Shown: positions 15,801 to 21,800 of the stretch, piece after piece | Layout: each line of letters begins with the position of its first letter | Position numbering within the stretch: position 1 is the first letter of the stretch | NCBI RefSeq assembly: GCF_054482525.1 | Contig: NZ_CM137006.1 | Reading direction: 5' to 3' (one strand) | Length of the DNA stretch: 64,000 bases | Made by a program: the position numbers

Positions 15801-18800
15801 TCGCGTATTAACAGTTATAAAGGTCAGCCTGTCACCCGGCTTGCCGTTATGCTGAATTTACTGGTTTTTATTCGTTCCAGTGAACTCAGATACGCCCGCT
15901 GGTCTGAAATTGATATTGACAATGCCATGTGGACTATTCCAGCCGAACGCAAACCTCTGCCAGGGGTAAAATTCTCACACCGGGGCTCCAAGATGCGAAC
16001 ACCACATCTTGTGCCACTCAGCAAACAGGCTGTAGCCATACTGACAGAACTTCAGACATGGGCTGGTGAAAATGGTCTGATCTTTACGGGAGCACATGAC
16101 CCGCGTAAACCAATCAGTGAAAATACCGTAAATAAGGCCCTCAGAGTGATGGGGTATGACACAACCAAGGAAGTCTGTGGCCATGGATTCCGGGCGATGG
16201 CGTGCAGTGCATTGATTGAATCCGGCTTATGGTCAAGAGATGCGGTTGAACGTCAGATGAGTCATCAGGAGCGCAACGGAGTACGTGCCGCGTATATTCA
16301 TAAAGCAGAACATCTGGAAGAACGTCGGCTTATGCTGCAATGGTGGGCAGATTTTCTGGATGCAAACAGGGAGGAGTGTATCAGTCCGTTTGAATATGCA
16401 AAAGTTAACAATCCACTGAAAAGGTGACTGAACGCCATTTACACACATGCTCTTCCTCTTAAGGGGAAGAGCACCCGCCTCAATCAATTTCTTTTTTATG
16501 CCGGCGGAACCATCAGCCAGGCTGAGGTTCTCATTCAATAACTCAACGTCTTACCACAGAACAGAATTCACTGTATTATCATGGGCAACGTTAATCCCGG
16601 ACAATAAAAGGACACCGATGCCAGGCATCACAATTTTTATAGCCTGCAGATTATGGTCCATCCTTTTTTACAGGTTCAGAATATGACTGGCAAATTACGC
16701 TTTGAAGTGAACGATAACCAGGGCTGTTTCATATTTTCGGAAACCTGGTTTGGCTCGTTGCTGGATGAGTTTGAAGAACTGATTGATGCATACGATGCGG
16801 ATGAAATCAGCGAAACAAGTTACATCAACAAACTCAGGCGCCTTGCCCGACAGGAGAATGACTTTATTGATGTACACGCTCACTTGGCATACGTATTTCT
16901 GGAGCAGAATGCCCCGCGTAAGGCGCTGAATGCTGCCCTTAAAGGGCTGGCAGTTGGCAATCGTCTTATCCCTGAAGGTTTCAGTGGCAGAATCATCTGG
17001 ATACATCCTGACAACCGACCTTTTCTTCGTGCCCTCTATGCGGCAATCCTGGCAAATGCACATTTACGGCGTCATCAGGATGCCATCATGCTCATTGAAA
17101 AAATACTGGATTACAATCCCGAAGATAATCATGGTGCACGCTGGCTACTGGGACCGGAACTGTTACGCACTGGCGCTCATGAACAGGCACGCCATATACT
17201 GCAGGAACATGCAGATGAATTTTCACCTTACTGGTATGAACTCGGCCTTCTGCATTTTCTTAATGGGGAACTGGTAAAAGCTGCAACTGCATTTCGTCGC
17301 GGCTTTGCGGCAAATACTTACATCGCAGAAATACTGTGCGGAAATCTGCATCCATTTCCACTTGCTGTATGGCATAACTTTTCAGGCGGTCCGGATACTG
17401 CCGAAGATTATTATGCCACATACCACCCGTTATGGGGGCAATATCCGGAAGCATTGCTGTTTGTAAACTGGCTCTATAATCATTCCTCTGTGCTGCATGA
17501 ACGGGCAGAAATCATTAAATGCGCCGAAATGCTGATGCAGGAAGATGATTTCGAAATATGCGAAAGTATTTTAAGACAGCAGGAGAAGTTGCGTGAAAGA
17601 ATTGATGAGACGCTTTCTGAGAAAATTGTACAGAAATGCAGAAATATGAATGGTGAATATGTCTGGCCCTGGATATTGCCGTTTTCAGCGGCAGGCATGA
17701 AACATACTGGCATACAGTATCAGTAGATATTGCATTAGTGTATCCTGCACACAAGTAATAATTTATCCACCAATAATAACACTGTTAATGTCCCCTTCCC
17801 CTGGTTGTCAGCCAGGGGTTATCTTCTGAATATTTCTTTTGAAAAGGATAACACAGTAAATTATTTTTATGAATTATCCCATGGACTCATTAACACCCTT
17901 TCATAATGCTTTATTGTCAAACACGTTATGGCTGACATCAAAAAAAACCGGATTTCCTCTGCCAGCGGGTAATCACCTCCCCGGTGTTTTCGGTTGGTCT
18001 GGTTACTCCTGTCTGGTTATGAGCAAGATAATTGCTATAAACAGTGGAAAACTCATCGTACATAATCTGGTGATGAACATTACGCTTATTTTCCCTTGAC
18101 CGGAAGAATCAGAGGCTGCGGTTTCAGACTGTCTGCCGGTACATTCCTCTCTCCGTTAAAAACCATAACGGGTTCATTATCTTCGTCTGTCAGCAGATTG
18201 AATGGCGGTATATTTTCAGTACGAATGCCGGTCAGCCACTGAAAAATACCTGCGAAATGACGGGCACTGATTTTTCTGCTGACGGACTGATGAGACGTGA
18301 TGTCACTGGCGGTAATAATCAGGGGAACGCTGTAGCCTCCCTGCACATGACCATCATGATGAACAGGATTAGCACTGTCGCTGACCGACAGACCATGGTC
18401 AGAAAAGTAAAGCATGGCAAAATGACGGGAATGCCGGCGAAGGATACCATCAAGCTGCCCGAGAAAGTTATCCAGTTTACTGATGCTGGCGAGGTAACAG
18501 GCAATCTTCCGGGGGAACTGCTCCTGGTAATTATTCGGCCAGGAGTGAAGCCGGTCACACGGGTTCGGATGAGACCCCATCATGTGCAGGAATATCACCT
18601 TCGGAGAGGATTTATCCGCCAGCGCACGTTCTGTTTCCTGTAACAACAACATGTCATCCGTTTTACGGGAAGCGAAGCTGCCTTTCTTGAGGAAAACGGT
18701 ATGCTCCGCATCAGAAGCAATAACAGAGATGCGTGTGTCATGCTCTCCCAGTTTTCCCTGATTGGATATCCACCATGTGCTGTATCCTGCTTTTGCTGCC

Positions 18801-21800
18801 AGCGCCACCACGTTGTTGCCGGAATCAGGGTTCTGCTCATAGTCATAAATCAGTGTCCGGCTCAGGGAAGGCACAGTACTGGCTGCTGCCGATGTATAGC
18901 CGTCAATAAATAAACCGGGAGCAGTATTCAGCCACGGTGTGGTTGGCACGGGATAGCCATATACCGACATATAATCCCTGCGCACACTCTCACCAGTGAC
19001 GATAACAATCGTGTCATACAACGGTACACCCGGCAGGATTTTCCAGTTGTCAGCCCCGTGCTGATTCAGTTGTTTATAACGCTGCATTTCACGCAATGTG
19101 TCAGTTGTCCCCACAACAGTTCCTTTAACCATCCGCAACGGCCAGCTGTTTACTGAGCATAATACGAACAGCAGCAGTGCCAGCCAGTTACGGTGACCAC
19201 GGCGGTGTGTTCGCCAGAAAATCACCATGAATACCTGAATCGCGGCACTGACCAGAAAATGATAAACAGGAATCATCCCGGTAAACTCCGCTGCCTCATC
19301 AGTTGTGGTCTGCAGCAACGCGACAATAAAACTGTTGTTGATTTTACCGTACGTCATACCGGCAGGCGCATACAGTGCACAACAGAACAGAAATAACAGC
19401 GCTGTAATGGATGTGAGGGTATTTCTGTGTGCAAGGAGCAGAAGAAGGAACAGCAGCAACACATTCCCGGTGGCATTCTTCTCAGTGTATCCGCATGCAA
19501 TTGTGGTTATTGCAGAAACGACAAAAAAGAATAAAAACAATAAAATCCGGGGGGTGTTACCCGGACAAAACAGTTTTCTGATATTCATCGGAGTATATCG
19601 ACAACATTATTATGAAGAGAACAGGATAATAAAAATCAGAAATTATCTGTAAAACAGATAAAAGACAACCCTGCAGTAATAGACTGCAGGGTATTTCTGT
19701 TTAATTGCAGAAGATATGCAATTATCTTAATTACAGAATATACGCAATTATCGTTCAGGAGCAGTGTCGTCAGAAGTTATAAGTCATACCAAGCATGATG
19801 TCATGACTTTTAACATCAACTTCTGACTTATATTTATCGCCCCACTCGTCCTTGTAACTCACACTGCTGTCACCTGCATCAAGATAGCGATAGCTGAGGT
19901 CCAGAGCGATATCCGGGGTTACGTCATAGCGGACACCCGCGCCAAGGCTCCATGCGAAGTTGTCAGCAGAGCCTGAACGTGACAACGATTCGCGACCACT
20001 GCTTCCGTACTCATAATCCCAGGTACTGATACCGGTTGTTTTCTGGTGAATTCTGGCGTAGCCAATCCCTGCGGATACCCATGGTGTGAATGCGCTGTCA
20101 TTCCGGAAGTCATAGTACGCATTCAGCATTAGTGTGTTGACTGACACCTCATTCTTCAGGTCATCACGCCAGTAACCACCTGACCAGCTGTCTTTATCTA
20201 CGTTATACTTCGAATCAGCTTTTCCACGAGCGTAAAACTCCAGTTCTGTTCGAACCGGAATACTGAACTGCGGATAAAAATCATAACCAGCCGCGATACC
20301 ACCACTGAATACCGTATCATGGTCATCGCCGCCTTTATACTTTGACGTTTCTTCCTCATCTCCTGACAGGAAATGCTGGTCTGAAAGTGACACCACAGAG
20401 GTACCGGCTTTACCGGTCAGATAAAAACCGCTTTTACCTTCCTCAGCACCTGCATTTGCTGCAAATACACAGGCTGTGGCCACCACTGAAACAGCAAAAA
20501 CCTTTTTCATTTCAATTATCTCCATTATTGTATCATCATTTTAATATATATTTTTAATATTTAAAAACCGGACTAAAGGCAGCCTCAACACTCCACACTA
20601 CGGAAGCCAGACTTTTACTCTACACAAAATAAATATATCTTCTCAGTGAGGACGTGAACGCCTGTCTGAAATTATGTGAATACAACCTCCCCAGAATACA
20701 AACAGGCAGGGGCACTGGAGTAACCGATCACAATACTTCTGCCTTTTTATATTTTACCGATAATCTCCGTTTAATATAGTTCTTACCGATTTCATAATCG
20801 GGGTTCCATGTAGATAAATTATGAACACCTATTGCTACTGCACTCGCCACTCCCAGAATTACGGTTGGTGACCATAAAGAACCAGCTAAAGCTGTACTCC
20901 TGTACTCAGTATATACACGACAACTTAATTTCGTTTTCTCTATTTCATGCTCCACTCTTTTTACCGTTTCACTAACATCGGAAACATTTTCGATCACAAA
21001 ACTCTTACGTTCATAAATAAGCTTGCTTAATGTATTTATATCTAAAAATTTCGCATCAAAAGAATCAATCTGTACTGTTTTTTCTTGTGCTGACATCTTC
21101 TTTTCCTGGCTGGTATGGCAAGTGACGGAGACAAGAGAAACGTTTTAAGCTCAGTTATCTCCGCCATCACTTTCCACGAATGACAAGTAATTTTGCCTAT
21201 TTTAAAACCATGCAAAAGGCAGGGTAAAAGGAGAAAATTCGATCGAATCGATCGACAAAATCGATCATACATGATGAAGATTTTTTATCGAATCCATAAA
21301 AATAGTGACAGCTAACCGGCGTTGCAGGAACAGTCAGAAATGGGCGTTTGGGAAAGAGCCATAGCACTACGTCGTCGCTGACATAGAGGAACTGTGCTTT
21401 GTTGATAAGATCCTTTATACGGCAACCAATCCACTGGACAAAAGATGAACTACGTAATCACCGGGTTCTCACTGACGAAATACAGAAGTTAATGACACAA
21501 CTGTGCCATGTACCTTGTACAACAGCGGTGGAAAGCTCTCAGAACAATGGAATTGCAGAAAGGTGTTAAAACGATGAAAGCCTTCATACCCAAATCGAAT
21601 GTAAGAACGGCAGTAAAGACTGAATTGCGTAACCTTGCATTAGCTCGAGTATTACACTGCATAGTGTGCAGGGTTATCTCCCATCGAGAAAATATCGGCG
21701 CCAGCGAATAACGTCACCTTAGATGTAGCAGTTGCCAAATAGTGACTCAAGGGCGGGCTTACCGCATACACTGACACTTAGCGGATCGACAGAATATTAT

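Follow-up and report, generated by a model that had tools for sequence, protein, structure and literature searches.

The window analysed here is a stretch of 64,000 nucleotides (nt) from contig NZ_CM137006.1 of the NCBI RefSeq assembly GCF_054482525.1, and the gene under study, which encodes a predicted phosphoethanolamine (pEtN) transferase, is one of three neighbouring open reading frames (ORFs) on its minus strand, with lengths of 500, 251 and 122 amino acids (aa). An ORF listing confirms all three, which the first-pass annotation, made from the sequence alone, had described within 18086-21096:

18086-19588, minus strand: 500-aa predicted inner-membrane pEtN (phospho-form) transferase of the OpgE/PptA clade, from Pfam, blastp, tree and predicted structure.
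19770-20525, minus strand: 8-stranded outer-membrane barrel adhesin of the Hra/Hek/Tia family (PF13505), 246 aa when read from the start at 20510 chosen by the NCBI Prokaryotic Genome Annotation Pipeline (PGAP).
20728-21096, minus strand: 122-aa hypothetical protein with one hydrophobic segment, matching no family.

Judged by sequence comparison, the transferase is not a lipid A enzyme of the EptA/MCR type, and resembles the OpgE/PptA branch of pEtN transferases. The gene is also already known, being common, annotated, and reported in papers, under the name "YjgX" or "putative opgE", from the entry sites of islands.

The transferase matches the Pfam family Sulfatase over residues 193-446 (PF00884, E 1.4e-37) and, weakly, EptA_B_N over residues 44-146 (PF08019, E 9.6e-5), and at 500 aa it is indeed shorter than the K-12 paralogues (527-577 aa), as had been remarked before. 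An AlphaFold2 model built on 29 relatives (mean predicted local distance difference test score 88.4, predicted template-modelling score 0.80) contains five predicted hydrophobic helices (residues 12-31, 39-53, 57-80, 108-127 and 135-145), two further short helices within residues 85-104, and a bridging helix (149-177) that leads into an alpha/beta domain. The best Foldseek matches are the catalytic domain of EcEptC, full-length MCR-1 (9nww) and NmEptA (5fgn), with E values of 1e-11 to 5e-18 for EcEptC, MCR-1, NmEptA and CjEptC, and the structural alignments to 9nww and 5fgn span the full length of the transferase.

Six residues (E200, T238, H335, H340, D397 and H398) are invariant both in an alignment with K-12 EptA, EptB, EptC, OpgE and YhbX and across 29 clade members, while H411 is at least 90% conserved among the latter; the MCR-1 nucleophile T285 aligns with T238, and MCR-1 D465-H466 with D397-H398. 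These alignments show a predicted active site that is complete, with E200, D397 and H398 as putative Zn ligands, T238 as putative nucleophile, and H340 and H411 in addition. The protein belongs to the pEtN (phospho-form) transferase superfamily (YhjW/YjdB/YijP/YbiP; alkaline-phosphatase fold) by the fold of its predicted periplasmic domain, its N-terminal membrane domain and its catalytic residues. The catalytic motifs reported in the first-pass annotation, nucleophilic Thr and metal ligands alike, are all present, the loss of residues that it had named as a possible refutation is not seen, and the transferase looks like an active enzyme.

Among the K-12 paralogues, OpgE is the best blastp match (30% identity over residues 20-492, E 5e-74), followed by YhbX (E 4e-28), EptC (E 1e-25) and EptB (E 1e-11), with EptA the weakest (21% identity, catalytic domain only, E 3e-8). 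PptA of Neisseria gonorrhoeae is 32% identical to the transferase over ~440 residues (E 8e-64) and 34% identical to OpgE. This homologue was found by tblastn of plasmid records, where a gonococcal chromosome had been filed as a plasmid, and its neighbours murE and murF, which are reported to flank dca/pptA (PMC1538595), identify it as that gene. The NCBIfam EptA equivalogs score 61 and 39.8 bits against cut-offs of 561 and 660, and with the models for MCR-4, -5, -8, -10 and -13, whose cut-offs are 1225-1250, the scores are 18-32 bits. In a neighbour-joining tree, the transferase groups with one homologue each from Salmonella and Erwinia and with a paralogue carried on E. coli plasmids, forming a subclade that is sister to the OpgE orthologue group and not within it, and that nests in a superclade together with the OpgE orthologues, genes of an Acinetobacter outer-core locus and a Haemophilus ducreyi homologue; YhbX, EptC, EptB and EptA fall outside this OpgE-like superclade. 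The EptA-family lipid A modification proposed in the first-pass annotation finds no support in the nearest relatives, the family models or the tree.

The functions reported for these relatives are diverse. OpgE is the pEtN transferase of osmoregulated periplasmic glucans (OPGs), and a K-12 opgE mutant is devoid of OPG-pEtN (PMC3818809), a result that is silent on the island enzyme because K-12 has only a pseudogene remnant of it. The targets of PptA include pilin and at least two lipoproteins of the periplasm (review PMC10525099). The OpgE-like PtdA and PtdB of H. ducreyi leave lipid A modification unaffected and contribute to surface charge and defensin resistance (PMC4406763), and since their effects came without lipid A change, OpgE-like enzymes can act on other envelope targets.

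Two further homologues deserve description. An Acinetobacter sp. protein, P0108 (36% identical; locus L016, 5001-6479), is encoded in an apparent lipooligosaccharide outer-core locus, where its gene follows an ilvE-type aminotransferase gene among glycosyltransferase and deacetylase genes, a position which hints that some clade members modify core sugars. The plasmid paralogue of E. coli (~53% identical, 511 aa, 1955 member sequences; L010, 6001-7536 and L081, 6920-8455) follows a DUF2569 gene and is flanked by a thermonuclease gene and by excA, the gene for surface exclusion. One carrier plasmid is typed IncK2/Z and another carrier contig has IncI-type transfer and exclusion genes; matches to this paralogue are found in 149 plasmid records (127 from Escherichia), most of them predicted to be conjugative. 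The plasmid paralogue is not an MCR; a speculative role for it would be a surface modification that excludes phage or conjugative pili. In a scan of species-representative genomes, no member from beyond E. coli and Salmonella exceeded 39% identity, and the scan points to no donor lineage.

The transferase gene is acquired, as the first-pass annotation had held, and the island that carries it is of uropathogenic type and is inserted at tRNA-Phe (pheU), with a P4-type integrase beside the tRNA gene. Its first features are as follows:

14889-14964, plus strand: tRNA-Phe (pheU), the island attachment site (ARAGORN), with dsbD and yjdC/dicD upstream.
15162-16427, plus strand: P4-type tyrosine integrase, first gene of the island (NCBIfam PRK09692 integrase domain, E 1.3e-75; PGAP 'tyrosine-type recombinase/integrase').
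16653-17726, plus strand: tetratricopeptide repeat (TPR) protein, ShiA-like (SisA/SisB type), member of a 90% cluster source-named 'ShiA-like protein' or 'tetratricopeptide repeat protein'.

The transferase, the barrel gene and the 122-aa ORF lie 3-6 kb inside the island, at its integrase end, and the TPR gene is found between integrase and transferase in many islands. The same DNA block occurs at pheV, not pheU, in another uropathogenic E. coli (UPEC) strain, and downstream of the transferase-barrel cassette the window is collinear with uropathogenic strains that have S/F1C fimbriae, a second fimbrial operon, cnf1 and hlyD. Positions 24035-63824 of the window, collinear with strains SCU-484 and UPEC 26-1, contain S/F1C-type fimbrial genes, a second chaperone-usher operon and insertion sequence (IS) remnants, and a 1014-aa ORF (54049-57093) stands at the cnf1 position, with other ORFs at the hlyD, hlyB and part-hlyA positions. 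Two minor features of the plus strand flank the genes under study: a 76-aa ORF (17869-18099; PGAP hypothetical WP_001327330.1), convergent with the transferase gene and overlapping its 3' end by 14 nt, for which there is no evidence of a real gene, and a frameshifted 'GTP-binding protein' fragment (~21830-22176) beyond the 122-aa ORF.

The barrel protein belongs to the Hra/Hek/Tia family of ~25-kDa, 8-stranded outer-membrane barrels, and the Tia/Hra-like label that it had received earlier is borne out by three lines of evidence: a match to OMP_b-brl (PF13505, E 1.5e-20), 63% identity to the PGAP 'invasion outer membrane protein Tia', and the name 'tia invasion determinant' given by one source to its exact sequence. 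It is 90% identical to the leuX and pheV alleles, and the PGAP start lies 15 nt downstream of that of the 251-aa ORF, giving 246 aa. For the 122-aa ORF, neither Pfam, NCBIfam nor PADLOC returned a match; its one hydrophobic stretch makes the small membrane protein of the first-pass annotation plausible. PADLOC matched none of four proteins (transferase, barrel, TPR and 122-aa) to a defence system.

The distribution of these genes indicates that barrel and transferase move jointly, as a small cassette of the island backbone, and that the 122-aa ORF is not part of the conserved pair. The pair is covered to at least 80% in 1077 genomes, versus 434 for a 3.5-kb stretch that includes the 122-aa ORF; the cassettes at leuX, pheV and selC lack this ORF, which only a subset of islands carry. 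At leuX the pair adjoins a dnd/dpt island, at pheV TerB-type genes, and at selC, where the barrel is PGAP-named Tia, a type I restriction system, and in the leuX, pheV and selC strains a truncated integrase gene follows the barrel (L004, 4698-4863; L082, 5043-5225; L083, 3700-3885). This suggests that the integrase-transferase-barrel block is an old mini-island at the head of composite islands to which varied cargo has been added. The tandem is found again in a divergent lineage, represented by one Salmonella contig and one metagenomic contig, with an enzyme 58-60% identical and a barrel 52% identical to those of the window; here an intact dynamin-like GTPase gene lies directly upstream of the barrel (L012, 3991-4905; L085, 85-972), and the cassette may once have been GTPase-barrel-transferase. 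The tandem is absent around the plasmid paralogue, the Erwinia homologue and the chromosomal relatives at 36-39% identity. This linkage, which extends across pheU, pheV, leuX, selC and the 58-60% lineage, is less often noted in papers.

Within the cassette, the barrel of the window and the Tia allele are 63% identical and the adjoining enzymes 95% identical. The ratio of nonsynonymous to synonymous substitution rates (dN/dS) is 0.12-0.20 among four intact transferase alleles, whose proteins differ by up to 9%, showing that the intact alleles are under purifying selection. In the Salmonella homologue, runs of 9 A and 10 C occur in the 45 nt that precede the ATG corresponding by alignment to the start in E. 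coli (L012, 5935-5970), and the related metagenomic copy has only 4 C in this tract; the Salmonella homopolymer runs may form a phase-variable tract, as known for Neisseria pptA.

The first-pass annotation placed the transferase immediately downstream of the barrel, which is correct as to position, but two predicted expression signals intervene:

19668-19692, minus strand: terminator-like hairpin just past the barrel gene, with a 10-bp stem (ACCCTGCAGT/ACTGCAGGGT) followed by a T-rich tail.
19626-19653, minus strand: sigma-70 promoter-like site, TTTACA-16-TATTAT (consensus scan, 10/12 matches), 38 nt upstream of the transferase ATG.

Four E. coli alleles retain the hairpin stem but vary in the loop, and ~6 bp of the stem are left in the Tia-linked allele; the -10 hexamer of the promoter-like site is deleted in one allele (WCHEC025157). 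A single barrel-transferase operon as the default arrangement was rejected on the conserved hairpin and the intervening promoter-like site, although read-through is possible and the -10 is lost in that one allele, and the two genes probably do not form an obligate operon.

The transferase DNA is 100% identical to that of many RefSeq genomes, where PGAP names the product 'phosphoethanolamine transferase' (WP_001547322.1); 997 contigs encode the exact protein, which belongs to a 90% cluster of 8941 members. Among 5426 complete E. coli genomes, 2974 contain some match to the gene and 1450 (~27%) at least 80% of it, a near-full-length copy. The mobile polymyxin-resistance angle of the first-pass annotation is without support. 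Some copies are interrupted by IS elements. K-12 retains a pseudogene with a frameshift and an internal stop, beside IS2 and a P4-type integrase at tRNA-Leu (leuX), that is 91.7% identical in DNA to nucleotides 314-1487 of the transferase gene; the first ~313 nt and the barrel gene are lost, and the remnant is recorded by PGAP without a gene name. We take this leuX/KpLE2 remnant to be yjgX, of which the window gene would then be the intact form. The K-12 and B strains in the genome search have a truncated copy only.

In the literature, a genome-wide association study (GWAS) of bloodstream isolates associated urinary entry with 'putative opgE' genes that neighbour integrases and the pap operon, and its authors placed the gene and the integrases on one horizontally acquired island with the pap operon (PMC8946752). 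A 2026 study of Shiga toxin-producing E. coli replaced a 5.5-kb block (TPR gene, transferase, barrel gene and atoS fragment) by a cassette and discussed the deletion phenotypes as effects of hes and sisA (PMC13340028). It is sisA and hes/hek that figure as the virulence genes of this block, the transferase between them being unmentioned or co-deleted (PMC13340028). Two other papers were set aside: one on fimbrial modification in Klebsiella, retrieved by a search for Hek and phosphoethanolamine transferase, is unrelated, the modification being histidine oxidation by CfmP, and one on polymyxin-resistant Enterobacteriaceae has opgE as a gene-table entry only.

Set beside the characterised systems, the island enzyme shares with OpgE (YbiP) the layout of five transmembrane helices and a sulfatase fold, the catalytic residues and the superclade, and each gene adjoins a gene for a small 8-stranded outer-membrane barrel; it differs in being a paralogue, 27 residues shorter, carried on a tRNA-linked island and oriented in the same direction as its barrel gene. 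In K-12 (L008, 5451-7598), as in 14/14 opgE-type loci of other Enterobacterales, true opgE and ompX are convergent. The literature searched held no published functional link between ompX and ybiP, with one incidental mention only. A duplication of the ompX-opgE pair as the origin of the hra-yjgX pair was considered and rejected, the genes being in tandem in one case and convergent in the other, and the barrels only marginally similar (15.7 bits), so that the resemblance stands as an unexplained coincidence. PptA (Dca) is equally close, and both it and the island enzyme occur in pathogens beside or among adhesin genes; however, the pptA gene belongs to the dcw cluster, with murE and murF on either side, and the target of its product is type IV pilin, for which no gene is found near the island transferase. 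EptA/PmrC and MCR-1 to MCR-10 have the superfamily, the fold and the catalytic Thr/Zn site in common with it, but EptA identity reaches only 21%, in the catalytic domain alone, scores lie below the family cut-offs, and the branch is separate. PtdA and PtdB fall in the same superclade, the H. ducreyi homologue being 31% identical, but they are encoded by core-genome genes of a species without OPGs and are not linked to a Hra-type barrel.

On balance, and with moderate confidence, the product of the gene is best explained as a working phospho-form transferase in the inner membrane, related to OpgE and PptA, with an envelope glycan as its likely acceptor and a role in polymyxin resistance unlikely. 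By analogy with the family, pEtN would be taken from phosphatidylethanolamine onto T238, with release of diacylglycerol, and then handed to an acceptor exposed to the periplasm, which, from the position of the clade, would be other than lipid A. The most likely acceptor would be an envelope glycan, either the OPGs, as for OpgE, or a sugar of the lipopolysaccharide (LPS) core, the latter being suggested by the Acinetobacter relatives in an outer-core locus, and the expected effect would be an altered envelope charge rather than polymyxin resistance. Several points count against this interpretation: OpgE and PptA are about equally distant, leaving weak grounds for preferring a glycan to a protein; the conserved adhesin-gene linkage would be explained no less well by a protein acceptor; a core opgE is expected in E. 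coli already, so that another enzyme for OPGs would seem superfluous; decay is frequent, with fragments only in about half of the genomes that bear a trace of the gene, K-12 included; no obvious Shine-Dalgarno sequence or ribosome-binding site precedes the transferase ATG; and the literature searched contains neither a biochemical or genetic test of the transferase alone nor phenotype data.

The main alternative, though an unlikely one, is that the enzyme is a PptA-like protein phospho-form transferase placing pEtN on Ser/Thr of a surface or periplasmic protein, most obviously the Hra/Hek/Tia barrel and possibly another adhesin of the island, such as the fimbrial subunits, in which case modification would tune adhesion, autoaggregation or antigenicity. 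PptA is as close to the enzyme as OpgE is, and targets pilin and lipoproteins; islands at pheU, pheV, leuX and selC all retain the barrel-transferase tandem, with barrels of both Hek and Tia type, and so does the divergent lineage, at identities of only 58-60% for the enzyme and 52% for the barrel; and true opgE likewise always stands beside a small barrel gene, ompX. The kinship to PptA and the linkage to a Hra-family barrel give some weight to the outer-membrane-protein modification that the first-pass annotation had offered as its other option. However, the phenotypes of Hes and Hra1 were seen when these were cloned alone in HB101 (PMC5539235), and since HB101 is a K-12/B hybrid, and K-12 and B strains have the truncated copy only, modification is not required for adhesion. 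Nor do enzyme and barrel co-vary, the barrel falling to 63% identity where the enzyme stays at 95%, and the terminator-like hairpin between the two genes, as well as the absence of a barrel beside the plasmid-borne and Erwinia members of the subclade, also argue against this reading.

Less likely again is that the gene hitch-hikes in the backbone of an ancient mini-island, which would consist of integrase, TPR gene, transferase, barrel and integrase fragment; it would contribute little here and persist by its linkage to the integrase end, with the island cargo being what is selected. The same few genes do head islands with pap/foc/cnf/hly, dnd-dpt, type I restriction-modification and TerB genes as well as K-12 KpLE2, the barrel is followed by an integrase fragment in three strains, many copies survive as fragments or are interrupted by IS elements, and the GWAS places the gene and integrases on a pap island (PMC8946752). 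Against such passive carriage speak the low dN/dS among intact alleles, the retention of every catalytic residue, and a pair that is kept down to 58% enzyme identity in another lineage. More doubtful still is the idea that the cassette is a functional unit, in which a YjgX-type enzyme would put pEtN on the barrel or other surface adhesins, or would locally modify the LPS core so that short barrels reach anionic host ligands.

The least supported reading, in which the acquired gene encodes a lipid A pEtN transferase of EptA/MCR type and polymyxin susceptibility is lowered by it, is very improbable: the enzyme shares superfamily and catalytic residues with EptA/MCR and a full-length structural alignment with MCR-1 and NmEptA, and some database records name its relatives 'lipid A phosphoethanolamine transferase' (automatic names only), but EptA is its most distant K-12 paralogue, the EptA and MCR scores are far under their cut-offs, the tree puts it outside the EptA/EptB branch, the OpgE-like enzymes of H. 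ducreyi are without effect on lipid A modification, about 27% of complete genomes of E. coli, a species ordinarily colistin-susceptible, have near-full-length copies, and a defensin screen returned a yjgX mutant of K-12 as a false positive, though that copy is a pseudogene.

These results bear first on annotation: the gene should not be flagged as an mcr-like resistance determinant, since sequence, curated thresholds and clade placement all point away from that. It is a very common accessory gene, situated between or beside virulence genes of the sisA/shiA type and of the hek/hra/tia/hes type, and because it was co-deleted with hes and sisA, and the GWAS signal for urinary entry mapped there, the transferase is a real confounder. 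Its affinity with OpgE/PptA and its fixed partnership with Hra-family adhesins are useful corrections. If the linkage to Hra-family adhesins is functional, pEtN decoration would extend to a new class of targets, and if the cassette does act as a unit, it would represent the first pEtN-modified beta-barrel adhesin system in the Enterobacteriaceae.

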